Notes under the pieces: model-generated | Seen by the model: only the letters and a program-made list of their open reading frames with translations | Databases searched by the model: none | Told to the model about the DNA's origin: nothing | Assembly: GCA_037189525.1 (NCBI GenBank) | Contig: JBBCJC010000005.1 | Span: forward strand, 992,001-1,056,000 | Source of the DNA: Gemmatimonadales bacterium | GTDB taxonomy: Bacteria > Gemmatimonadota > Gemmatimonadetes > Gemmatimonadales > GWC2-71-9 | Length of the DNA: 64,000 bases | Reading direction: 5' to 3' | Translations under genes and position numbers: made by a program | In this document: positions 1 through 13,628 of the stretch, piece after piece | Layout of the letters: every line of letters begins with the position of its first letter | How positions within the stretch are numbered: the stretch's first letter is position 1

Positions 1-2655
1 CTGGCGCCGCTGGCTGAGCCCGCCTTGATCGCTCCGCAGCTGGCGAATGGATTCGGACTGATGGAAACGGCGGGTCATTCACCCGTCGACCTGATCCGGC
101 GGGCCGTCGGCAACGAGCGGGTCCTCCTGATCCTGGACAACTGCGAGCATCTGATCGATGCAATCGCGCTCCTGGTCGAAGAGTGTCTGGGCGCGGTGCC
201 CGACCTCAGTATCCTGGCCACGAGCCGTGAAGCACTCGGCGTCCAGGGCGAAACGGCCTGGCTGGTTCCGCCCCTCGGCGATGCCGAAGCGGCGCAGCTG
301 TTCGTAGAACGTGGCCGGAGTGTCTCGCCCGGCTTTTCCATGACCGACGCCACGCGTCCCGCCATCGAGACCATCTGCCGGCGTCTCGACGGTATCCCGC
401 TGGCCATCGAACTGGCGGCCGCGCGGGTTCGGGTCATTGCCCCCGACCAGATTGCCGAGCGGCTGTCGGATGCGCTCCGGCTGCTCAACGTGGGCAGTCG
501 CACGGCGCTGCCCAGACAGCGCACCTTGCGTGGCACGCTCGACTGGAGCTTTGCGCTCCTGACGGACTTCGAACGCTGCCTGCTCGAACGGCTGGCCGTC
601 TTTCCCGGAACCTTTTCGCTCGAGTCCGCCGAGGCCGTCGCCGCCGACGATCGCGTGGCCACGGAAGAGGTACTCGACGGAATCTCGGCGCTGGTCGACA
701 AATCGCTGATCGTGCTCGACATCAACGACACCGGGACCCGGTATCGCTTGCTGGAAACCGTCCGCCAGTATGGTGAAGAGCGGCTCCGGGCCTCCAGCGG
801 ATGGGACGCGGCACGCCAGCGTCACGCCGCCCATTTTCTGGCCAGCGCGGAGGCGGCGGCGCCTTATGTCTTCGGCGGCGCCTCAGACCCGGCCTGCATG
901 GCGCGTCTGGCCGCCGATACGCCGAACTATCGCGCCCTCGCCGAGTGGGCCGCCGAGCGGAACGATCGGGCGGAGTACTCCCTGCGGCTGGGCTGGGCAC
1001 TGCACTGGTTCTGGTTTGCCCGCGGTTCCTTCGAAGAGGGACGGCTCCAGCTGCGCAACGCGCTGACCGGAGCGGAAGGCGCTGCCGTCCAGTGGCGAGC
1101 TCGCGCGTCCCTCGCGCTGGCGCATGTCGGCATCTGGCAAGGATGGCGGAGCGGCATCACGCCGTTGATGGCGCACGCCGCCGAGGGCCTGGAAGCGGCT
1201 GGCCACCAGTTCGATCTGGCCTATGCCCTGGTCGGATGGGGCGCTGGCTTCATCATCGAAGGCAATCCGGCAGAGGCCGCGCCACGGCTCGACCGGGCGG
1301 AGGGCCTGCTGGCGGGATATCCTCCGCACGTCCTGCACTCCCTGCTCAACTTCTGGCGCGGGCTCGCTGCGCAGCATCTGGGCGATCTGCGCAGTGCTCG
1401 CGCTGCCTTCGTGAACGCCGGCGACAACGGGCGGGCGATCGGCCATCAGCCGGCCATAGCGTACCCGATGGCCATGCTCGGTAGCATCGATCTCTCCGAA
1501 CAGCAGCCCCAGGATGCCCTGCGGCACTATGGCGACAGTCTGTCCATCCACGAGGCCATCGACGATCGCTGGGGCATGGTTCGCGGCCTGGAAGGAGTCG
1601 GGATGGCAGCCGGCATGCTTGGTAACGCATCCGATGCCGCAGTCCTGCTCGGCGCGGCGGAACGATTCCGCGAGCGGTACGCCATTCCGCACGCGACCGG
1701 CGAGGTGGCCGACTATCAGGCCGCGGTGGCACGCGTGCGCAGTGCTCTCGGAGCCACCGCCGAGGAGTTCTGGCAACGGGGTCACGACCTGAAACTGCGC
1801 GATGCAGTCGCCCTCGCACGCGGGCTCGTGAAGCCGCCCAGCGAGCAAGAAGCGGCACCGTCCGTTGCGTCGATCGAGGCCGCTACTTCGCAAGCGGCGT
1901 GTGCTGACCTTGCGATCTACACATTGGGAACGTTTCGCGCCGTGGTCCGCGGTGCCGAAATCGAGTCGTCTGCCTGGGGATCTGCCCGGCCCCGGGAACT
2001 CCTGGCTTTCCTTGCCCTGCATCCCAATGGGGTGTCACGAGAGCAAGCCGGGGCGGCCATGTGGCCTGAAGCGTCGGCAACCCAGGTTCGCAACAACTTT
2101 CACGTGACGATGCACCGGCTCCGCAAGGCGTTGGGCAACAGCGAGTGGATCGTCGTCGATCAGGATCGCTACCGCATCGACCCCGCGCTCACCGTTTCCT
2201 TCGATGTCCACGCATTGGAGTCGGGCGTTGGTACGCTCGCGCTCGATGACCCGGCAAACGTCGCCAGCCTGGCAGCGTTGTTGGATGGCTATCGTGGAGA
2301 CTTCCTCGCGGGCGAGCCGGCCGGCCCCTGGCGCCAGGGCATTGCCCAGCGACTGCAACGCGTCTACATCGAGGGGCAGCTCGCGCTGATCGGATGGTAT
2401 CACGCGCACGGGCACATCGAGCCGGCCATCGAGGCGTCTCGCCGGATCATCGCTCGCGATCCGCTCAACGAAGAGGCCTGGCGGTGGCTGATCCGTTGCC
2501 AGGCCGATCAGGGCAATGCCGCACCGGCGCTCGCCACCTATCGCCAGTTTACCGACCTGCTGCAGAACGAAGTCGGCGCCGCGCCGGACGACGCTACCAG
2601 GAGCCTGGCGGACCGGATTGCGGCGAGGCTTCAGCAGACCGCCGCTACGAGTTGA
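1..2655 (+). CDS. ATPase (NB-ARC-like)/TPR protein with C-terminal winged-helix + BTAD (SARP-type) domain; 5'-partial
   Basis: Frame open from base 1. Walker B-like LLILDNCEH, ICRRLDGIPLAIELAAAR, RYRLLETVRQY, TPR-like helices, then RPRELLAFLAL...RLRKALG and DPLNEEAWRWLIRC (BTAD). Confidence 0.85.
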   Translation: MAPLAEPALIAPQLANGFGLMETAGHSPVDLIRRAVGNERVLLILDNCEHLIDAIALLVEECLGAVPDLSILATSREALGVQGETAWLVPPLGDAEAAQLFVERGRSVSPGFSMTDATRPAIETICRRLDGIPLAIELAAARVRVIAPDQIAERLSDALRLLNVGSRTALPRQRTLRGTLDWSFALLTDFERCLLERLAVFPGTFSLESAEAVAADDRVATEEVLDGISALVDKSLIVLDINDTGTRYRLLETVRQYGEERLRASSGWDAARQRHAAHFLASAEAAAPYVFGGASDPACMARLAADTPNYRALAEWAAERNDRAEYSLRLGWALHWFWFARGSFEEGRLQLRNALTGAEGAAVQWRARASLALAHVGIWQGWRSGITPLMAHAAEGLEAAGHQFDLAYALVGWGAGFIIEGNPAEAAPRLDRAEGLLAGYPPHVLHSLLNFWRGLAAQHLGDLRSARAAFVNAGDNGRAIGHQPAIAYPMAMLGSIDLSEQQPQDALRHYGDSLSIHEAIDDRWGMVRGLEGVGMAAGMLGNASDAAVLLGAAERFRERYAIPHATGEVADYQAAVARVRSALGATAEEFWQRGHDLKLRDAVALARGLVKPPSEQEAAPSVASIEAATSQAACADLAIYTLGTFRAVVRGAEIESSAWGSARPRELLAFLALHPNGVSREQAGAAMWPEASATQVRNNFHVTMHRLRKALGNSEWIVVDQDRYRIDPALTVSFDVHALESGVGTLALDDPANVASLAALLDGYRGDFLAGEPAGPWRQGIAQRLQRVYIEGQLALIGWYHAHGHIEPAIEASRRIIARDPLNEEAWRWLIRCQADQGNAAPALATYRQFTDLLQNEVGAAPDDATRSLADRIAARLQQTAATS

Positions 2656-3097
2656 TTCGCTCGACGACCACCACTTCGAAGAGTTCCTCATTGCAGCGGA
2701 ACCGCCGGGTGATGGTCTGCGTCGAACCGGGCAGCTGCATCCGATAGTCCGACCCTTCGACCACGACAGGTAAGCCCAGCTGGCACGGCGCGGGCAGCAA
2801 TCCCTTGAGGTTCCCCCCGACCACGTTGGTCAGCTCGGCCAGCGCGTCCTGGAGGTCCTGAGGGGTGACCCCTTCGTGGGGCGTGGCAAACATCGAACTG
2901 GCGGCCTGACGCCCCATCCCTTCCGTAACGAAGAGACCGATTGCGCCTTCCCACTCTCCCGATATCGTGACGACACCGGCGTAGGGCAACGCGACACCCC
3001 GCGACGCATCGATGTCCTCTTCCCACGCGGGGAGCTGCAACATGCTCTCCCAGGTACCCTGTACGATCGGTAAAATCGATTCCTCGAGCTCAGGCAT
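2645..3097 (-). CDS. cheX: Chemotaxis phosphatase CheX
   Basis: DALAELTNVVGGNLK (ExxN motif). ATG at 3097 with AAGGA RBS. Last gene of the che operon. Confidence 0.85.
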   Translation of the reverse strand: MPELEESILPIVQGTWESMLQLPAWEEDIDASRGVALPYAGVVTISGEWEGAIGLFVTEGMGRQAASSMFATPHEGVTPQDLQDALAELTNVVGGNLKGLLPAPCQLGLPVVVEGSDYRMQLPGSTQTITRRFRCNEELFEVVVVERINS

Positions 3098-3935
3098 ACT
3101 GTGTCCTTGCACTAGGTGCGGTGTACTGGTAGACGACCGCCGACCCGACCGGCGCGCGCACGAACGCGTCATCGAGCGCCATGGTCGTCTCGGCGCTGCC
3201 AAGCATGAGGTATCCGTCGGGGGCGAGAGTTTGCCTGACCTTGCGGAAGATGTCGCGCTTCATGGTCGTGTCGAAGTAGATCAGGACGTTCCGCATCAGA
3301 ATCAGATCCATGGGCGGCAGGACCGGCCACGGTGTCGCCAGGTTCATGACCTGGCAGTCGATCATGGCCCGGATATCCTCACGCACCAGCCAATCGGTGC
3401 CCACCTTGGTGAAATACTTGAGAAGCATCGGAGCCGGCAGACCACGATTGACCTCGAGCTGCGAGAAGCGGCCCGTCCTGGTGCGCTCGACCATGACGCT
3501 CGACAGGTCGGTTGCCAGCAGGGTTACTCGCCAGTTCGCCAGCTCGGGAAAATGCTCCTTGATCAGCATCGCGAGCGTCACCGGCTCCTGCCCCGACGAG
3601 CAGGCCGCCGACCAGATGGTCAGCCGCCGAGTCGCCGCACGAGCTGCGATCAAACGCGGAAGGATGACGGTCTTGAGTGCCTCGAACGGATGGAGGTCGC
3701 GATAGAACGTGGTCTCGTTGGTCGTCATGGCCTCGACCACCTTGGTGTGCAGCGGGCTCACCGCGGTCGCTGCGAGGCGCTGCACCAGGTCATCGATGGT
3801 CTTGAACCCCTCGGCACGCGCCAGCGGCGCCAGTCGGGATTCGACCAGGTACTCCTTACCCGGATCGAGCACGATTGCCGCGCGCTTGTGAACCAGCGTG
3901 CGGACAAACTCGAAGGTCTGCGCCTGAATCGCCAT
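3090..3935 (-). CDS. cheR: Chemotaxis methyltransferase CheR
   Basis: MTTNETTFYRD, IWSAACSSGQE, MRNVLIYFD motifs. Confidence 0.95.
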   Translation of the reverse strand: MAIQAQTFEFVRTLVHKRAAIVLDPGKEYLVESRLAPLARAEGFKTIDDLVQRLAATAVSPLHTKVVEAMTTNETTFYRDLHPFEALKTVILPRLIAARAATRRLTIWSAACSSGQEPVTLAMLIKEHFPELANWRVTLLATDLSSVMVERTRTGRFSQLEVNRGLPAPMLLKYFTKVGTDWLVREDIRAMIDCQVMNLATPWPVLPPMDLILMRNVLIYFDTTMKRDIFRKVRQTLAPDGYLMLGSAETTMALDDAFVRAPVGSAVVYQYTAPSARTQYA

Positions 3936-3940
3936 GGACG

Positions 3941-5056
3941 CTACCGCCCCGCCGAAGCCGTCGTGGTGTCGAACGGTCGCCGGCCAACGGCGACGGTCCT
4001 GGTGATCTCGCCGGCAATCCGGTCGAGCGGCAGCACCGCATCCGCCAGCCCAGCAGACGCAATGAATCCGGGCATACCCCAAACCACCGAAGTGGCCTCG
4101 TCCTGCACGAGAATGCGTCCATGCGCACCGCGGATCTGCTCGGCGCCGCGCAGACCATCCTGCCCCATCCCGGTCAGCACCACACCAAACGTGCCGGCGC
4201 CATAGATCGCGGCCGCCGTACGAAACATCGGATCGACCGCGGGGCGGCAGGAATTTTCCGGCGGATCCTGTGTCAGCTCGATGCGCACACGGGCGCCGTC
4301 ACGAACCAGCAGCAGATGCCAATCGCCCGGCGCAATCCAGCCGGCGCCCGGGGTCAGAACGGCGCCATCGGTGGCCTCATGAAAAGGGATCCGGCAGCGC
4401 GCCGTCAGCCGTTCTGCCAGCAGCCGCGTGAACATCGGCGGCATATGTTGGGTAACTACGATGGGGACCGGAAATGCCTCGGGCAGGTCCGCCAAAACGG
4501 TTTGCAGAGCATTGGGGCCGCCCGTCGACGCGCCGATGGCCAGCAGGTCGATCCGGCGCGCCGCGCGATCCACCGCGGCTCCGGGCCGCGGCAACGACGG
4601 CATCGGACGAATTGTCGAGACGAGATTCGGCGCCGCGATCCCGGCCACGCGCGCAGCCAGCGCCTTGACCTTCGGAATGACTTCATCCCGAATCCGCTGC
4701 TGCGCAATACTGACGCTGCCTACATTGGCGGGTTTGGTCACGTAATCCGACGCCCCGCGAGCCAGCGCATCGAGCGTAGTACCCGCCCCGCGCTCGGTCA
4801 GCGTGCTGAACATCAAGACCGGGAGCCGAGGCCAGGTTTTCCGGATTTCGACCACCGTTGCCAGACCGTCGAGTTCGGGCATTTCGACATCGAGCGTCAC
4901 GAGGTCCGGATTGACCTGCGAAATCTTCTGAAGGCCGATCCGCCCGTTAGGCGCGGTGCCGACGACCTCGATATCCGGGTCAGCCGCCAGCACGTCGGTC
5001 AGCATGCGACGCACCACCACTGCGTCGTCGACGACCAGCACACGGATCTTTCGCAT
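3941..5056 (-). CDS. cheB: Chemotaxis methylesterase CheB (REC + methylesterase)
   Basis: VLVVDD...LDVEMP receiver; GASTGGP, QHMPP, LTGMGQDG. Confidence 0.96.
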   Translation of the reverse strand: MRKIRVLVVDDAVVVRRMLTDVLAADPDIEVVGTAPNGRIGLQKISQVNPDLVTLDVEMPELDGLATVVEIRKTWPRLPVLMFSTLTERGAGTTLDALARGASDYVTKPANVGSVSIAQQRIRDEVIPKVKALAARVAGIAAPNLVSTIRPMPSLPRPGAAVDRAARRIDLLAIGASTGGPNALQTVLADLPEAFPVPIVVTQHMPPMFTRLLAERLTARCRIPFHEATDGAVLTPGAGWIAPGDWHLLLVRDGARVRIELTQDPPENSCRPAVDPMFRTAAAIYGAGTFGVVLTGMGQDGLRGAEQIRGAHGRILVQDEATSVVWGMPGFIASAGLADAVLPLDRIAGEITRTVAVGRRPFDTTTASAGR

Positions 5057-5067
5057 GGTCAGGTAGC

Positions 5068-5439
5068 CTACGCCGCGACCAGTCCGAGGATGCCGAGTTT
5101 TCCCTGGAGCGACTCCTTGGTAAACGGCTTCATCAGATACTCATTGGCGCCGGCCGCCATCGCATCGTTGACCTGTGACGCCTCCGTTTCCGTCGTCGCC
5201 ATGACGATCTTGATGTCGGCATACCGCCCATCCGCCCGGACCGCCTTGACGAGTTCGAGTCCGTTCATCTCCGGCATGTTCCAGTCGCAGAGGATTACGT
5301 CAGGCATCGGCCCTTCACCAAGTTTACCGAGTGCATCTTTACCATGGCCCGCCTCGGCGCACTCGAAGCCCAACTCCCCCATGAACCGCGACAGCATGAT
5401 CCGCATGGCACGCGAATCGTCGATAATCAGTGCCCGCAC
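5068..5439 (-). CDS. cheY: Single-domain response regulator CheY
   Basis: IIDD, CDWNMPEMNG, KPF; position in che operon. Confidence 0.92.
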   Translation of the reverse strand: MRALIIDDSRAMRIMLSRFMGELGFECAEAGHGKDALGKLGEGPMPDVILCDWNMPEMNGLELVKAVRADGRYADIKIVMATTETEASQVNDAMAAGANEYLMKPFTKESLQGKLGILGLVAA

Positions 5440-5457: not shown

Positions 5458-7329
5458 TCAGATCGTGAACCGCTGAACCAGCCGCTGCAACTCGGCCGAC
5501 ATCCGAGACAACTCCGCCGACGCCTTGAGCGAGTCCGTGGCGCCCTGGGAGGTCGAGGATGCTGCCTGCGCAACGCCCGAGATGTTCTGGGCAATCTCCG
5601 ACGACCCCTTGGCCGCTTCGCCCACGTTGCGACTCATCTCGTTGGTCGTCGCAGTCTGCTCTTCGACGGCGCTCGCAATCGTCGCCTGGATCTCGGCAAT
5701 CCGGTTGATCACGCTGGAGATTTCCTGGATCGCCGTGATCGACCCCGCGGTATCCTGCTGAATCGCTTCGATTTTCTGGCTGATGTCTTCGGTGGCCTTG
5801 GCAGTTTCCTTGGCCAGTTCCTTGACCTCGTTGGCCACGACGGCAAAGCCCTTCCCGGCCTCGCCGGCGCGCGCCGCTTCGATCGTCGCGTTGAGCGCGA
5901 GGAGATTGGTCTGCTGGGCAATTGACGTGATGACCTTGATGACCTTGCCGATCTCGGCGCTCGATTCGCCCAGCTTGGCAACGGTTGCGTTGGTCGACTC
6001 CGCAATCTTGACCGCATGCCCGGCAACCCGCGACGCTTCCGAGGCATTGGAGGCGATTTCCCGGATGCTGGCGCTCATCTCTTCCGTACCGGTCGCGACC
6101 GTCACGACGTTCTTGCTGACCTGTTCCGATGCCGCCGAGACGACACCCGCCTGCGCCGACGTTTCCTCGGCGTTAGCGCTCATCTGCTGGCTGACCGCGT
6201 TGAGCTCTTCGGCTGCCGCGGCCAGCGCGGTCGCGTTCTGCCCGATGGCCTGCATGCTTCCCCGCAGGTCATCGAGCAGCTTGGCCAACCCGCTGCCCAT
6301 CCGCCCGATGGCGTCGGTACCGGAGACCGTCACATCCCGGGTGAGATCGCCGGTCGATGCGGCGTCAACCACAGCCAGCATCGAGTCCACTTTCTCCCGG
6401 AGTTCCTGCGCAGCCTGCTGCTCCCGCTCGGCCGCCTCCCGGATCTGCCGCTCGGCGGCAAGCCGCTGCGTGATCACGTCCCAGGTGACCATGGGACCGA
6501 CATAGGCGCCGGTGGCGTCATAGATCGCGCTCACCAGCAGATCGAGCGTCTCGGGGCCAACTGCAATTTCGGCCCGATGCGGAAGGTTCTTGGGATCTGC
6601 CAGCAAGCGGCGCTGATGCGACGGGACTTTGTGGAAGATGTCGATGTTCTGGCCCAGCATCTCCGCCGCCTTGATCGGCAGATGCTGCTCCAGGGTCTGC
6701 AGGGTGCGGCTCGAAGCCGGATTGAGGTACCGGATACGCAGATCCCGATCCGCCATCATGACGTTGACCGGCGCATTCTCCAGCATCGTCATGGCCAGCG
6801 CCGCCTGCTTGGTCGCCGAGATGTCGGATGCGAATTTGACGACCTTGACCGGACGACCGTGCTCGCCAATGATGGGATTGTACGAGGCCTGAATCCAGAC
6901 CTCCTTACCACCTTTGCCGAACCGCTTGTACTCCGCGGTTTGCGACTTGCCGGAACCGAGATCGTGCCAGAACGCCTGATACTCGCGCGACGCGGCATAC
7001 TCGGGATCGATGAAGATCCGATGGTGCTGGCCGCGGATCTCGTCGAGCTGATAGCCCATCACGGCCAGAAAATTCTCGTTGGCCGCGACGATGGTCCCAT
7101 CCAGCTCGAACTCGATCACCGCCTGGGTCTTGTCGACGGCATCGAGCTTCGATCGGAGTTCATTCAACTCCTCTGCTCCGACCTCGATCGTCGCGTGAGC
7201 CCCTGTCAGCTCTGCCACTCCCTTGGCGATATCCGACACCCGGCGGTTCCGGGCCGGCGCTGCGGCATGCTTCATAACTTCCCCTTTTCCGGTCTGGCCG
7301 GCTTTGATGTGAGCGATACGACGCGTCAT
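5458..7329 (-). CDS. Soluble methyl-accepting chemotaxis protein with two PAS domains and HAMP (alternative start 7275)
   Basis: [30 protein letters not shown] signalling tip; two PAS domains; no transmembrane segment; ATGA overlap with the upstream gene. Confidence 0.93.
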
Positions 7330-7781
7330 GGCAACGCCGCCCCCGCGGCGGAGATTCTGGTGGGTTCGGTCAGACGTTCGACGGCAGGCGCCTCCGCGTA
7401 TTGCGGCTCCGGCGACGCGATCATGTAGCTGGTGGCGTAGTTGGCCACGCGAAGGACGACGAAGGCCATGCCGAGGTACCGATGGGCCAGGTGCGACGAA
7501 GTTCCTGAGCGCAGCTTGCGGATGCCCAAGCCTACCTGCACGAGATAGATGATGAGCACGAGCACCGATGCTACGATATGGAACGTCAGCACCGGACCGA
7601 GCGGCGCCGTCCTGACCGTCTCGACAGCCGATCTGGTGATTTCGATATACAGCACGAGCCCCAGGTCAACCGCCAGTGCCATGACCATGAGACCGAGGTG
7701 CAGCCGCGTGCGGCGGCGGTAGTAGAGGCCCGCACCGATCAGCACCAGGACCGCGGTCGACAAGAGATGGAGCATGCTCAT
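7326..7781 (-). CDS. 4-TM membrane protein, DUF420-like, with four helix-start histidines
   Basis: Four hydrophobic segments; His5, His28, His68, His100; ATGA overlaps at both ends. Confidence 0.7.
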
Positions 7782-8224
7782 TTGGACCCGACCGCCTCGA
7801 GATTGGTCGCGCAGGCCCGATCGAGCACGAGCAAGAGACGATCAGACAGCTTGTAGACCCCGCGGATCAGATCCTTGGCCGTCGGCGGCATCGTTTCCGG
7901 GGTGCGCTCGAACGAGTCGTCGTCCGTTTGAATCACGTCCCCGATCTCATCGACCCAGAGACTGATGGCGCCATCCTCGGTGCGCACTACGACGTTCATC
8001 GGCTCGACCCCATCCGGCCGCGGAGCGAGTCCGAGCCGAGTGCGCAGGTCGATAGCCGTGACGATCTGGCCACGCAGATTGATCAGGCCATGCACGGCGG
8101 GAGGCGCGAGCGGCACCCGGGTGGCCTCGAGACCTCTGATCACCTCCTGCACCTGGAGGACATCGACCCCAAAGTAGAGGTCATCAACATAGAAGGTGCA
8201 GAACTGCTGAGTCGCCATGGTCAA
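7778..8224 (-). CDS. cheW: Chemotaxis coupling protein CheW (alternative start 8218)
   Basis: FGVDVLQVQEVI, GLINLRGQIVTAIDL, VDEIGDV. Confidence 0.95.
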   Translation of the reverse strand: MTMATQQFCTFYVDDLYFGVDVLQVQEVIRGLEATRVPLAPPAVHGLINLRGQIVTAIDLRTRLGLAPRPDGVEPMNVVVRTEDGAISLWVDEIGDVIQTDDDSFERTPETMPPTAKDLIRGVYKLSDRLLLVLDRACATNLEAVGSK

Positions 8225-10518
8225 CGCTCCGTTCCTGCGCCCGCCAGCGCCTCGTCGTCTTCCCGGACCAAACCGGCCAGGCCGAGGACCGCTCGAATGT
8301 CCAGCAGATCAGTGACCTTGTCCTGGATGACCGCCGAACCCGAGACCGCGCGCCCATGCGAACGCCGCTCGACTGTGATGTCCTGCTCGGCGATATCCGT
8401 GATCTGGTCGACGACGAGGCCGATGCTCTCGCCGCGGTGCGCGTAGACGACGACCTGGATCGGATCGCTGACCGTCTCGTTCCGAACCACCCCGTCGACC
8501 AGTTCGTCCAGGTGCACCAGAGGCATGATCTCGCCGCGATACTGGACCACACGCCTGGTCCCTGCGACTTCGATCGCGCGCTGAGGGAACTCCTCCAGCC
8601 GCGCAATTTCGGAGAGCGGAACGGCCAGCCGATGATCTCGCCCGGCGCGGAACAGGAGCAGCGTGCGCCGCTCACCCGAGCCGGCAGCCGACGCCACCAC
8701 GTTCTCTTTCTGAGCGCGATCTCGGGCTGCCTGCAGCACGCCGGCCTGCTGGGCCAGCCCTCCGACATCGAGGATCAGCGCCACCTTGCCGTCGCCCATG
8801 ATGGTGGCACCGGCAAAGGCTGCAATGCCCTTGAGTTGCTTGGCAAGCGGTTTGACTACGATCTCTTCGGTATCGTTGATCTCGTCGACTACCAGGCCGA
8901 AGGACACGCCATCCGCCTGCAATACCACCACGTTGACCGCGTCGTAGTCGGCCCGCCACCGTTCGGCGGTAAAGCCGAGTGCATGATTGAGGACCACCAG
9001 CGGGAGCAGATTCCCGCGCAGCCGATAGACCGGCGCGCCATAGATCAGCTCGATGTTCTGGGCCACCTCTTCACCTTCGAGACGTACCAGTTCGAGCAGA
9101 CTGACCTGCGGAATCGCATAACGATCGCCGCGCGAGGTGACGATGAGGCCGGGAATGATGGCCAGCGTGAGCGGTATCCGAATCCGCAGCGTGGTGCCCT
9201 TGCCCGTATCGCTGCTGACGTCGACGGTGCCGCCGATCTTCTCGATGTTGGTTCGGACCACGTCCATCCCGACACCGCGCCCGGAGACGTTGGTCACTTT
9301 GGCCGCCGTCGAAAAACCTGGCGCGAAGATCAGATTGAATGCTTCCCGATCGCTGAGGCGACCCGCCTGCTCCGCGGTCAGGAGCCCTTTCTCAATCGCT
9401 TTCTGGCGTACCGCGGCAGGATCGATCCCGCCTCCGTCATCGGTAATCTCGATGTTGACCTGGCCACCCTCGTGAAAGGCCCGCATGAAGATCCGGCCCT
9501 CCGCCGGCTTGCCCCGGGCCATCCGGACCTCCGGCGGCTCGATACCGTGGTCGGCCGAGTTGCGGACGATGTGGGTGAGTGGATCCTTGATGGCTTCGAT
9601 GATGGTCTTGTCGAGCTCGGTTTCCTTGCCCTCCATCTCGAGCCTGATCCGCTTGCCGCATCCCGCCGCAAGGTCCCGCACTACCCGCGGAAACTTGCTC
9701 CAGACGTTGCCGATCGGCTGCATCCGCGTCTTCATGACGCCTTCCTGCAACTCCGTCGTGATCAGGTTGAGCCGTTGCGAGGTGGCCGACAGCGTCTGGT
9801 CCGCACTGGTGGCGAGATGCTGGAGAATCTGATTGCGGGCTAGCACGAGCTCGCCCACGAGGTTCATCAGCTTGTCGAGCAGGCCGACATCGACCCGAAT
9901 CGTGCTATCGCTCACGGAGACAGCGCCGCGTCCCCCCTCGGCCGCCTGACTCTCGAGGACTTCGGCAATCGCCTGAAACGGGACGTGCGCTTGCTCGACC
10001 AGGATCTCCCCGATATGGCGCGGATCGCCCTGCAACTGCTGCTCGGCCGCATCGCGCACCGCCTCGGGCGTCACCAGGCCGCGCGCGACCAGATGCTCAC
10101 CCATGTTCATCGGCGGCGCACCGGAGACCGCATCTTCTTCCTGCAGTGCGGTGAGACGCGCGATCAGCGGACCATAGTCGCCATCGCCCTCGGCTCCGGT
10201 CACTTCGATACTCGTCAACATCTGACGCAACGCATCGACCAGTTGCAGCAGGCCGCTGGTCCGCTCCGGCGTCAGATCGCGCGCCCCGTCGCGCAGCAGC
10301 GTCAGCAGATTCTCCCCGACATGGCTGACCGACTCGAGCTTGCCCAGACCCAGAAAACCGCAGGTGCCCTTGATGGTGTGCACACAACGGAAGATTCGCG
10401 CGAGCAGCTCATGATCCTTGGGTCGCTGTTCCAGCGCGACCAGATCACGATCGAGCTGATCGAGTCCTTCATTGCTCTCGACGAGAAACTCACGCGTGAT
10501 GTCATCCAGTTCGTGCAT
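8221..10518 (-). CDS. cheA: Histidine kinase CheA (Hpt, MshEN-like insert, dimerisation, HATPase, two CheW domains)
   Basis: IFRCVHTIKG, HIVRNSADHGIE, GFSTA...SGRGVGMDVV, two CheW-like C-terminal domains; GGAGG RBS. Confidence 0.96.
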   Translation of the reverse strand: MHELDDITREFLVESNEGLDQLDRDLVALEQRPKDHELLARIFRCVHTIKGTCGFLGLGKLESVSHVGENLLTLLRDGARDLTPERTSGLLQLVDALRQMLTSIEVTGAEGDGDYGPLIARLTALQEEDAVSGAPPMNMGEHLVARGLVTPEAVRDAAEQQLQGDPRHIGEILVEQAHVPFQAIAEVLESQAAEGGRGAVSVSDSTIRVDVGLLDKLMNLVGELVLARNQILQHLATSADQTLSATSQRLNLITTELQEGVMKTRMQPIGNVWSKFPRVVRDLAAGCGKRIRLEMEGKETELDKTIIEAIKDPLTHIVRNSADHGIEPPEVRMARGKPAEGRIFMRAFHEGGQVNIEITDDGGGIDPAAVRQKAIEKGLLTAEQAGRLSDREAFNLIFAPGFSTAAKVTNVSGRGVGMDVVRTNIEKIGGTVDVSSDTGKGTTLRIRIPLTLAIIPGLIVTSRGDRYAIPQVSLLELVRLEGEEVAQNIELIYGAPVYRLRGNLLPLVVLNHALGFTAERWRADYDAVNVVVLQADGVSFGLVVDEINDTEEIVVKPLAKQLKGIAAFAGATIMGDGKVALILDVGGLAQQAGVLQAARDRAQKENVVASAAGSGERRTLLLFRAGRDHRLAVPLSEIARLEEFPQRAIEVAGTRRVVQYRGEIMPLVHLDELVDGVVRNETVSDPIQVVVYAHRGESIGLVVDQITDIAEQDITVERRSHGRAVSGSAVIQDKVTDLLDIRAVLGLAGLVREDDEALAGAGTER

Positions 10519-10721: not shown

Positions 10722-12023
10722 TCACGACTCCGGCAGAACACGCAGGCCGACCAGCATCTGCTCACCGGATACCGAGCGGAATGCTGCGACTTGCGACCAC
10801 GAAGTCGCAGACAGGGCCGAGATATCGATACTGCCCGACGGGAGTCCCATCTTGAGGTCGAGATCCCGGGTCAGCAGTGAAGCGCGAATCCGTCCGGCAA
10901 CCGTGTTGGTCAGTTCGTTGAGCACATCGGCAGCGCCTTCGTCCATCGACACGTCCATCCCGAGCATCTTGGCAGAAAGCCGAAGCACAGAGGATTCATC
11001 GCTGAGGAGCGACACCTCGAGCCGAACACCGCTCTCGGCCGTTCCCAGCACCAGCGTCGAACGGACCGGCAACTCGAGACGGGCGGTTTCGTCCGGGCCG
11101 AGATGTGTCGCGTCCTGGCCGGTCAAAACGCCGATGGTCTGCTGGGTCGCAGAGAGCACCTCCGGCAACAACTCCCCGGCCAGCAACTCGCGCAGACGAT
11201 CGATCGGCGCGACCAGCTTGAGCACCCCTCGTTCGAGCGCGCTGGAGAATTGCTCGGGGACGAAGGTCTTTCTGAGCACGCCATGGAACTGACTGGCCTT
11301 GTAGGGCTCGATCGGATCACTATTCGTCAGCAGATAGATTTCCGGAGGATCGGCTTTGTGCTTCGCGGCAATCCGTCGGAGCGTGGCTGCCATCTGCAGT
11401 TCATCGATAACCGGCAATGCCTCCGGCAACAGCACCACCCGCGGGAGCGGATTCCGCTCCTGAAACAGCATCGCAGCCCGCGGCGCTGAGGTCGCTTCGA
11501 TCACCTCGAAATGCGCCCCGAGCAGCGGCTTCGCAAAGGCCAGGAAATTCGGATCCGGCTCGACGATCAGCAGTTCCGCGGCGGCCCGCGCCGGCGCCTG
11601 CTGCCGGCGTCGATCGGCGTTCCGGAGCACCGTCCGGAAGCGCGGCAAGGCAAAGTCGTGCCGAACCGGTTTGAGCAGCAGGTCGCTGACACCGATCTCG
11701 ATGACTTCGCGAATCACACTGTTGTCACCGACCGCCGAGGTACAGACGACCGGCATGTTGCGATACTTTTCCGACGCCCGGATCGCCCGCAACGTTTCGA
11801 CGCCGTTCATGATCGGCATATCGATGTCGACAACGACGAGATCGGCCTTTGCGCTTCCCTCTTCGAGCATGTAGAGCAGCTCGAGACCGTTCTCAGCTTC
11901 CAGCGCCTCGACATCGAGCTGCTGCAGGACGCGCCGCAGCACGGTACGCATACCGCGCTCGCCGTCGGCAATCAGTGCAATCACGCGCCGTCTCCTCTCC
12001 AGATCGTTAGGTGGCCACGGCAA
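10722..12023 (-). CDS. REC + degenerate REC + CheX-like phosphatase fusion protein
   Basis: VVDIDMPIMNG...KPV receiver; second receiver-like fold lacking the phospho-Asp; C-terminal DVLNELTNTVAG. Confidence 0.8.
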   Translation of the reverse strand: MPWPPNDLERRRRVIALIADGERGMRTVLRRVLQQLDVEALEAENGLELLYMLEEGSAKADLVVVDIDMPIMNGVETLRAIRASEKYRNMPVVCTSAVGDNSVIREVIEIGVSDLLLKPVRHDFALPRFRTVLRNADRRRQQAPARAAAELLIVEPDPNFLAFAKPLLGAHFEVIEATSAPRAAMLFQERNPLPRVVLLPEALPVIDELQMAATLRRIAAKHKADPPEIYLLTNSDPIEPYKASQFHGVLRKTFVPEQFSSALERGVLKLVAPIDRLRELLAGELLPEVLSATQQTIGVLTGQDATHLGPDETARLELPVRSTLVLGTAESGVRLEVSLLSDESSVLRLSAKMLGMDVSMDEGAADVLNELTNTVAGRIRASLLTRDLDLKMGLPSGSIDISALSATSWSQVAAFRSVSGEQMLVGLRVLPES

Positions 12024-12035
12024 GTTACAGGCTAG

Positions 12036-12062
12036 CTATCGGAGAGATTCCGCTGCGCTTGA
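12036..12062 (-). promoter_or_regulatory. Putative sigma28 (FliA) promoter
   Basis: Minus strand TCAA-N15-TCCGATAG, 12 nt before the TTG start at 12023. Confidence 0.6.
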
Positions 12063-12238
12063 GCAGTGCAAGCAGATACGTTACGAATTCATCGATGCGT
12101 CATGATCCCTTCATGAAGCACCAGTCATCAACGCACAGACCGCGAGGCTTCTTTGCAATGCGCAGGTAGTGAAGTGTTCACGGCAACAATCTCGAAGACT
12201 GCACGCCGGGTGACTCCGCTGTATCATTCGGCGGGTGG

Positions 12239-12703
12239 ATGGATCGAGCATTCCCGCGCCATGGAGGAATCGTGCAGGAAGGGGTGAGACCTGCGGAGAC
12301 ACCGATGCCGGGCCGAACCCTTTCGAGGCCGGCACGGATCGGACTACAGGTTATCGGATTGGTCTGTGTCGCCCTGGGCGGGCTGGGCGTCCTGCTGCCC
12401 GGCCTGCCCACGACGCCGTTTCTACTGATTGCCGCCGCGGCGTTCGCGCGCTCGTCGCCCAGCCTTCATCGACGGCTGCTCGACAACCGGGTCTTCGGTC
12501 CGTTGATTCGGGACTGGCAGGCCAACCGTACCATCTCACCCGGCGCCAAGCTCAGCGCGGTGGCATCGATTGCGGTTTTGGGGGGAGCGACATTGGTCTT
12601 CCTGGTACCGCGCACGGCGGGGCGTATCGGGCTCGGGGCCATCATGCTGACGGTCGTCATCTGGTTAGTGACACGACCGTCGACACCGCGGAATCGACAG
12701 TAG
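12239..12703 (+). CDS. ybaN: YbaN/DUF454 family inner-membrane protein (true start may be 12272 or 12305)
   Basis: GVLLPGLPTTPFLLIAAAAFARSSPSLHRRLL...FGPLIRDW signature. Confidence 0.85.
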   Translation: MDRAFPRHGGIVQEGVRPAETPMPGRTLSRPARIGLQVIGLVCVALGGLGVLLPGLPTTPFLLIAAAAFARSSPSLHRRLLDNRVFGPLIRDWQANRTISPGAKLSAVASIAVLGGATLVFLVPRTAGRIGLGAIMLTVVIWLVTRPSTPRNRQ

Positions 12704-12713
12704 CGAGAACGTC

Positions 12714-13628
12714 CTACCGGGTGAACTGCCGCGCGCGGTCGCCGATCGCGCCGACCTCCACCAGGAACGCGTCCCGGCTATCCGGAGCAATGTCCAGTCG
12801 CTCGAACACCTCGGCCGGGGCTACATCGCCGCTCCCTTCCTGCGCCAGTTCGAGCCCGGCCGCGGTACAGAGCGCCTCGGCGCCCCACACGATGGCGGCC
12901 AGCGCCGCGGCTTCAGCGGGCGCATCCTCGGGCCGGTGGTGACAGGCCACCGACCACTGCACCACCGCAGGCAGCGCCCACCGTTCGAGCATCCGCCCGC
13001 CGATGCCTCCGTGGTCCATCCCGAGCAGGTCGATCTCGACCCGATACCGCGGCGCCATGTCCGCGTCGGTCGCCGACTGGACCTCCGCGAAATCCCCGCT
13101 GAAGAACTGGTCCTCGATCAGGAGCCCCACGTCGTGCAGCAGACCGGCCGTATAAGCCTCACCATCATCGACCGAGCCATATCGGCGGCTCAGCCCGGCC
13201 AGCCGCTCGGCCACGAGCCCGACCGCCGCCGAGTGCTCCCAATAGCGGGCATGGTCGAGCCCACCGGCGTTCTGTCCGAAGGCCCGCACGATTCCCACCG
13301 TCAGACACAGGGCTCGCACATTGGCGATCCCCAGCCGCCCGATGGCATCCCGCACGGTGGTCACGGCATCGCCCCGCGAGAACGCGGTTGAATTGGCCAC
13401 CCGGAGGACCCGCGCGGTCAGCGCCGGGTCCCGTTCGATGATCGCCCCGATGTCCCGAAGGCCGGACATCTCGTTGGCCAGGGCACGCTGTACTTCGAGC
13501 ACCAGACTCGGCAACGTCGGCAGCTGCTTACCACTGGTAAACAGGCCCTCGAGCCGGGTCGGAAATGTGGTCACGGATCCTCGCATTACTCTCAACTTTG
13601 TCCCAACGTTCTCAGGCCAGCCCATCAC
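12714..13628 (-). CDS. HDOD domain protein (start uncertain)
   Basis: LPTLP...IERDPALTARVLRVANS, YWEHS, TAGLLHDVG, DHGGIGG...W.LP. Confidence 0.9.
   Translation of the reverse strand: MMGWPENVGTKLRVMRGSVTTFPTRLEGLFTSGKQLPTLPSLVLEVQRALANEMSGLRDIGAIIERDPALTARVLRVANSTAFSRGDAVTTVRDAIGRLGIANVRALCLTVGIVRAFGQNAGGLDHARYWEHSAAVGLVAERLAGLSRRYGSVDDGEAYTAGLLHDVGLLIEDQFFSGDFAEVQSATDADMAPRYRVEIDLLGMDHGGIGGRMLERWALPAVVQWSVACHHRPEDAPAEAAALAAIVWGAEALCTAAGLELAQEGSGDVAPAEVFERLDIAPDSRDAFLVEVGAIGDRARQFTR

Follow-up and report, generated by a model that had tools for sequence, protein, structure and literature searches.

The 151-aa open reading frame located between cheW and a chemoreceptor gene in the window (the whole stretch of 64,000 nucleotides that was analysed) is a real gene of a flagellated member of Gemmatimonadales, in whose genome its operon (cheA-cheW-X-MCP-cheY-cheB-cheR-cheX) is intact. 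Judged from its sequence the product is probably a divergent, weakly related DUF420/CtaM-like protein, and sequence and context together suggest, at a rough probability of 40%, that it is an accessory in the membrane which binds heme and supplies it to the soluble, predicted oxygen receptor encoded next to it.

The che operon and its small membrane gene

All genes of the operon are situated on the minus strand, in the order of a receiver-receiver-CheX-like protein (10722..12023), cheA (8221..10518), cheW (7778..8218, with its ATG at 8218), the 151-aa open reading frame (7326..7781, conserved core aa 1–122), a soluble chemoreceptor (MCP) of 623 aa (5458..7329), cheY (5068..5439), cheB (3941..5056), cheR (3090..3944) and cheX (2645..3097). 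The genome also contains flagellin and FliM/N genes. Upstream of cheA, the region 10722–13628 encodes the receiver-receiver-CheX-like protein, present also in a paralogous operon and in locus L005, together with an HDOD protein; HDOD genes were found again near related operons in L013, L028, L055, L097 and L101.

The paralogous che operon (L007, G000:C5:940467-950876) is located on the same contig, 53 kb away, and is ~80% identical over the whole operon, while its copy of the small membrane gene is 72% identical to the one in the window. Its receptor lacks a stretch of the HAMP region, it contains a broken ABC1 kinase gene, and a gene of the heme-copper oxidase family is situated just past it (C5:951836-953128). 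Close homologs of the 151-aa protein are from Gemmatimonadales. When comparing the core of the membrane gene with that of L005 and of the paralogue, dN/dS was 0.098/0.807 (~0.12) and 0.148/0.842 (~0.18) respectively, with 0.058/0.612 for cheW as comparison. The membrane gene is under purifying selection, and a pseudogene or a chance open reading frame is ruled out by these values.

The sequence confirmed what an earlier note had stated, namely that the open reading frame lies between cheW and the MCP gene with ATGA at both junctions. The translational coupling to the MCP that the same note had deduced did not stand up to a comparison of junctions, on which obligatory coupling was rejected. A spacer is present at most of the 37 junctions between membrane gene and MCP listed for relatives, with an ATGA-type overlap in L005 and G376; the second ATG of the MCP gene, at 7275, has in front of it a strong ribosome site rich in purines; and in the paralogous operon a gap of 91 bases is followed by a start at the Met matching 7275. 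The overlap is probably incidental and not the real start of the MCP, for which 7275 is the likely position. On the cheW side an overlapping start is backed by the paralogue and by G015. In relatives the membrane gene usually begins with Met-Leu-His, at or a few bases past the cheW stop, and from the sequence the gene in the window could start at either Met1 (7781) or Met3 (7775).

Helices, histidines and distant relatives of the membrane protein

The predicted model of the membrane protein consists of four helices (aa 3–20, 25–54, 63–92 and 97–122; mean pLDDT 75) and a tail (aa 123–151) of low confidence (pLDDT ~50–57). In agreement with the earlier description of four transmembrane segments with a His near the start of each, H5 (7767-7769), H28 (7698-7700), H68 (7578-7580) and H100 (7482-7484, all on the minus strand) are found near the helix starts of the model. 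A profile built from six sequences retrieved 206 relatives, and in the best 120 of these the four residues are kept in 119, 120, 120 and 120 cases respectively, a pattern that is not due to chance. H97 was rejected as a ligand, a His being present there in 5 of the same 120. An exhaustive search at E 0.001 gave 627 clusters, and when the best 150 of these were analysed together with the query, H28 was found in 142/142, H68 in 151/151 and H100 in 145/149 rows, but H5 in only 49 of the 139 rows with a residue at that position, all four His occurring together in 44/138. On a poorly resolved tree of the 138 distant rows H5 changes 33 times, while among the rows with known genomic context it is kept in 51/55 and all four His in 50/55. 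The alignments thus point to an inner pair (H28/H100) that is universal and an outer pair that is conditional.

Loop charges in the best 120 of the 206 relatives (mean K+R of 3.4 in loop 1 and 3.9 in loop 3; in loop 2 a mean of 2.6 K+R and 1.0 D+E) suggest, by the positive-inside rule, that H28 and H100 face the cytoplasm and H5 and H68 the outside. D39, E47, R50, G86, R111, N114 and T117 are also conserved in the family. Among the best 120 of the 206 relatives the first His is located at residue 3, as part of the Met-Leu-His start, in 94/119, while the copies from Gemmatimonadales have it at position 5, and a further His at position 51 is present in 96/120 and absent from the window copy. Either the residue-3 or the position-51 His could be a candidate outer-face ligand.

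Family assignment is weak for the protein itself. Its match to PF04238 (DUF420), at E 0.0025 and 18.5 bits, is below the cut-off of 30.5, and no match over the cut-off was found anywhere in the source genome; among distant relatives 3/25 passed it. DUF420 was the best family, at E ≤0.1, for 100 of the best 120 of the 206 relatives. Alignment by hhalign to two canonical-looking members from the phylum gave probabilities of 70% (E 3.9e-5) and 20% (E 0.0011), and these alignments cover H28 and H100 but are weak, with H68 not cleanly aligned in one of them. Like the DUF420/CtaM proteins (YozB, PF04238) the family has four transmembrane helices within ~120–135 aa and His at the starts of helices 2–4; it differs in having its own motifs (D39, E47-x-x-R50 and R111-x-x-N114), an extra N-terminal His and a place in chemotaxis-globin operons instead of beside oxidase or heme A genes. 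CtaM is described in passages of PMC4958251 and PMC9145763 as an assembly factor for heme-copper oxidases and as a proposed heme-insertion chaperone. DUF420 has been proposed as the ancestor of heme A synthase (a passage of PMC8239418), a homology disputed in a passage of PMC12808453.

It could also be that the protein handles a metal (copper or iron) or is a generic factor of the CtaM kind, carried in the operon as a passenger and performing no service for the receptor, a reading that we consider improbable. The conserved D39, E47, R50, R111 and N114 could provide a site for a metal or an ion, and the Met-Leu-His start of the 94 close relatives resembles what we take to be an N-terminal copper-binding motif, against which stands the His at position 5 in Gemmatimonadales. 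The DUF420/CtaM proteins are themselves tied to oxidase assembly, and the review PMC9145763 favours CuB assembly or another late step for CtaM; no oxidase genes were found beside the membrane gene in the metagenome loci inspected, which speaks against such a role here.

The earlier note had read the protein as a di-heme cytochrome b. The four His of the close relatives fit heme binding, but since H5 is often missing in the wider family and the fold searches do not discriminate, they do not establish the protein as a fixed di-heme cytochrome b. A possible though rather unlikely version, ranked second and close behind the hand-over of heme proposed below, is a minimal, b561-like cytochrome that takes electrons, likely from the quinol pool, and re-reduces the globin and PAS hemes of the receptor for O2/NO binding. 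Such a protein would agree with the four His on alternating faces in 50/55 of the context-known rows, resembling the cytochrome b561 core (4O6Y), where His are found near the starts of four successive helices on alternating faces. The first His of the membrane family is not fixed, as its 33 changes on the tree illustrate, while the b561 His ligands are, to our knowledge, fixed, and the family lacks the flanking helices. Among the best 120 of the 206 relatives weak matches to b561 families at E ≤0.1 were obtained for 9/120 (prokaryotic) and 3/120 (eukaryotic), while searching the PDB by sequence, with a close and with a wide profile, produced nothing meaningful for the membrane protein (for b561 background see passages of PMC7828500). 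The predicted model aligns to residues 49–193 of 4O6Y with Z 10.8 and rmsd 3.3 over 124 aligned residues, but this is at rank 24 among generic bundles and not above unrelated helical bundles, the top matches in VIA-align being designed bundles (Z ~14, top 14.2) and oxidase subunit III; Foldseek with the same model gave no match at E 0.001 (E 1.6). With the predicted model, fold searches do not separate the membrane protein from generic four-helix bundles.

A predicted soluble heme receptor and a truncated hemoglobin as neighbours

The MCP has no transmembrane segment, as had been noted before (highest 19-residue hydropathy 1.12), and consists of a FAD-type look-alike PAS (PAS1, 6808..7125, minus strand), an Aer2-type heme PAS (PAS2, 6472..6792, minus strand), a HAMP domain and a signalling domain of ~38 heptads (~37.9 counted from the end of HAMP), which would place it in the 38H receptor class, presumably the F5 chemosensory class. 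PAS1 has its best matches in 3EWK, which we take to be a FAD-binding sensor, and in the E. coli-type Aer PAS (8DIK), and from these matches it may bind FAD. PAS2 matches 6CEQ (E 5.9e-20) and 4HI4 (E 3.7e-16), and its H233 and W283 fall in line with a His and a Trp found in Aer2 structures; H234 is the heme ligand of Pseudomonas aeruginosa Aer2 (a passage of PMC13401364). Binding of heme and O2 by PAS2 is predicted from this homology. Like the Aer2 receptors of P. aeruginosa and V. cholerae, the receptor is soluble and PAS2 keeps the positions of the heme His and distal Trp; unlike them, it scores 166 against a cut-off of 1200 in the NCBIfam Aer2 model and has ~38 heptads, its domains in another order and a PAS of FAD type, with a truncated hemoglobin added in relatives. 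No match to Bac_globin (PF01152) was found in the source genome, and the receptor of the window is without globin. That a soluble PAS receptor of an oxygen or redox type is encoded beside the membrane gene was borne out by these domains.

To place the membrane gene in a wider context a metagenome scan was performed, giving 55 loci, some of them near-duplicates. The gene follows cheW in 39 loci and cheR in 4, only a receptor follows it in 1 and it is located outside che genes in 11, so that 44/55 are in a che context and the position in the window is not unique to this genome. The gene is, as the earlier note had it, no standard che component, and in relatives it turns out to be a conserved accessory gene of che operons, where it co-occurs with PAS receptors. 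Eight of the 55 loci were too short or uncalled downstream, among them L022, in which a globin-like N-terminus breaks off. In the remaining 47 a group I truncated hemoglobin is encoded by the next gene in 32 and one gene away in 1 (33/47); 22 of the 32 are fused to the receptor, 6 are stand-alone in front of a receptor, 2 are cut by the contig end and 2 are fused to a reductase. A PAS receptor without globin follows in 7/47 and neither in 7/47. When clustered at 90% identity (55 rows, 5 of them from genomes), 30/39 informative clusters have a globin-linked member. The linked globin belongs to group I and resembles HbN (E about 1e-31, nearest to HbN-type structures), and a Tyr and a His position, presumably B10 Tyr and F8 His, are conserved in 26/26 aligned copies. 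An Aer2-type PAS was found in 33/34 linked receptors with a visible PAS, with the His motif in 32 (36 of 59 loci), while the N-terminal domain varies between globin, FAD-type PAS and heme PAS.

The gene follows cheR in 4 loci, and in G376 the membrane gene and a globin receptor are located upstream of cheA, from which it appears that the gene moves with the receptor and not with cheW. Globin-less cases, the window included, are scattered over the tree (the branch of the window is long and its placement unsure), which reads as repeated loss of the globin with retention of the membrane gene; purifying selection on the latter persists after globin loss. The passenger reading gains from the 7/47 loci in which the gene is an orphan, but 40 of the 47 readable loci keep it in front of a heme receptor or globin despite rearrangements.

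By source name the relatives belong to Acidobacteriota, Verrucomicrobiota, Planctomycetota and Bdellovibrionota, with a Cyanobacteria label as well. A single-protein search of named genome contigs gave 1 locus, in plasmids neither of two family members was matched and globin-PAS had no full match, and no fusion of the membrane protein was found among proteins of 266–2000 aa (8000 candidates scored; weak evidence). Single insertions between membrane gene and receptor were seen in L032:5525-6385 and L043:899-1507 (DUF3050 and a GPR1/FUN34/YaaH transporter). In the che operons of L097, L098, L105 and L103 as many as four soluble receptors of the Aer2 type are encoded, along with a distinct PAS-PAS protein that has no match to a signalling domain and that includes a globin in three of these operons.

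The earlier comparison with a split sensor of the CetA/CetB kind does not hold beyond a membrane gene lying next to a gene for a soluble PAS protein. According to a passage of PMC13401364, it is CetA that has the transmembrane segment together with HAMP and the signalling domain, while CetB consists of a FAD-PAS only, the opposite domain split to that of the pair in the window. Membership was rejected, the membrane protein having neither HAMP nor signalling domain and the soluble one PAS, HAMP and signalling domains. A looser version, in which the membrane half reports the redox state of the quinone pool to the soluble receptor or anchors it, would agree with the tight and conserved gene order in front of a receptor without transmembrane segment, with the retention of the membrane gene after repeated globin loss and with the likeness of PAS1 to FAD-type redox PAS domains. 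We nevertheless regard it as quite improbable: the receptor has its own sensor domains and, with its N-terminal domain varying, no constant docking surface is evident, the membrane protein has only short cytoplasmic loops, the overlap coupling is not conserved and the gene also precedes a globin-reductase that is no receptor.

A reverse survey covered 401 Gemmatimonadota genomes, given as plain counts since kin are not independent. The membrane gene was found in 3/401, a wider profile adding only 5 weak matches of other kinds, while an Aer2-type PAS is present in 18/401, 15 of these 18 without the membrane gene, and 12 other Aer2-type regions have no adjoining membrane gene. A similar globin occurs in 23/401 genomes (24 matches) but only 2 are inside a PAS receptor; both of these globin-PAS receptors adjoin the membrane gene, as do 0/22 of the other globin loci. 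Going by these counts the gene is the mark of a single receptor lineage, and heme receptors in general can do without it.

Heme supply and a proposed hand-over of heme

Missing from the earlier note is the main context of the gene: its usual neighbour is a truncated hemoglobin, the receptor has a heme PAS of the Aer2 type, and related operons contain hemA. The three together make a servicing of heme more plausible than a separate quinone sensor. Among the 21 loci in which 250 or more bases are visible after the receptor, hemA (glutamyl-tRNA reductase) comes next in 8 (L024, L032, L040, L042, L046, L049, L050 and L064, where the gene in front of it is that of the globin/PAS receptor), with a remnant in 2 more; 6/6 full-length copies scanned exceed the Pfam cut-off. 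As the 8 loci are distributed over four branches of the tree, heme supply appears to have been recruited to the operon. The source genome (98% complete) has ferrochelatase and heme-copper oxidases, but searches for GlutR, ALAD and HemC found none of the three, so heme or porphyrin must likely be scavenged. This apparent porphyrin auxotrophy is patchy across the order; ALAD was found in 2/21 genomes of the same genus and in 23/61 overall, its loss being general in the genus among carriers and non-carriers, which means that carriers of the membrane gene are not singled out.

In the proposed mechanism the protein would pick up heme in the membrane, either newly made or, in hosts without the early pathway, scavenged, and hold it at the cytoplasmic face between H28 and H100, with a looser outer site at H68, and H5 where present. 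The heme may then be passed to the truncated hemoglobin and Aer2-type PAS domains, and the receptor would send its oxygen signal through CheW, CheA and CheY to the flagellum, the latter being the textbook pathway. In the source genome the globin would have been lost, leaving the heme PAS as remaining client.

Hand-over of heme is ranked first because hemA is found in the operon, because the related CtaM is an assembly factor, because the outer site has no fixed pair of His and because the gene once precedes a globin with its own reductase. In L038:5477-7120 and L054:5382-7025, representing one event, a 2Fe-2S ferredoxin-FAD-NAD reductase with a C-terminal truncated globin is encoded directly 3' of the membrane gene (upstream of it in L038 are an MCP, a small GTPase and a roadblock gene). 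The b561-like electron donor would be redundant beside such a globin and leaves hemA unexplained. In its favour, globins of the HbN-like kind need an electron donor (a passage of PMC3820574), and the ABC1/UbiB-type kinases found in 5/55 metagenome loci (4 after the receptor and 1 upstream) and in G015 and G376 hint at quinone. Loading of heme is further supported by the gene being retained, and under purifying selection, after globin losses that are scattered over the tree.

Several observations weaken heme loading. The gene is dispensable for the receptor type, judging from the 15/18 Gemmatimonadota genomes with an Aer2-type PAS and no membrane gene; 7 loci have no heme receptor downstream; and H5 is kept in 51/55 context-known rows, as a true di-heme protein would need. 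The chaperone analogy is also weakened, as Bacillus lacking CtaM is reported to form hemes a and a3 in subunit I all the same (a passage of the review PMC9145763). The Corallococcus coralloides operon Cc-5 (CheA-CheW-MCP[Bac_globin, PAS]-ABC1-ABM-CheB-CheR), a globin-PAS operon known in silico only and proposed for aerotaxis, is likewise described without the gene in the main text of PMC6194562. It resembles the operons of the relatives in its soluble globin-PAS receptor and ABC1 kinase but differs in that the main text of that paper has no membrane gene between cheW and receptor and no hemA, and the receptor of the window lacks the globin. We give low credence to a more elaborate form, a dedicated membrane heme relay in which heme from hemA or from scavenging would be drawn across or out of the inner membrane, from the outer His to the inner bis-His site, and on to multi-heme globin/PAS receptors, the protein being in porphyrin-auxotrophic Gemmatimonadales a tiny heme permease within a chemotaxis operon.

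No description of the membrane gene in che operons was found in the literature searched, most subscription papers lying outside its scope, and the passages on CetA/CetB and Aer2 in PMC13401364 mention neither DUF420, truncated nor cytochrome b. Comparison of sequences and their contexts suggests that a divergent branch of DUF420/CtaM-like proteins was recruited to a heme-rich operon of aerotaxis type. If the membrane protein is a passenger the finding shrinks to an annotation note. The pair bears on how soluble heme sensors obtain heme and stay ferrous, and on the biochemistry of DUF420/CtaM: a relative of ~120 residues comes with a defined, soluble candidate client that can be assayed by colour, the truncated hemoglobin or the Aer2-type PAS, which makes hand-over versus electron transfer directly testable in E. 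coli or in vitro. The analysis also outlines a widespread, only partly described operon of aerotaxis type, with cheA, cheW, the membrane gene, a globin/PAS receptor, hemA or ABC1 and cheY/B/R/X.
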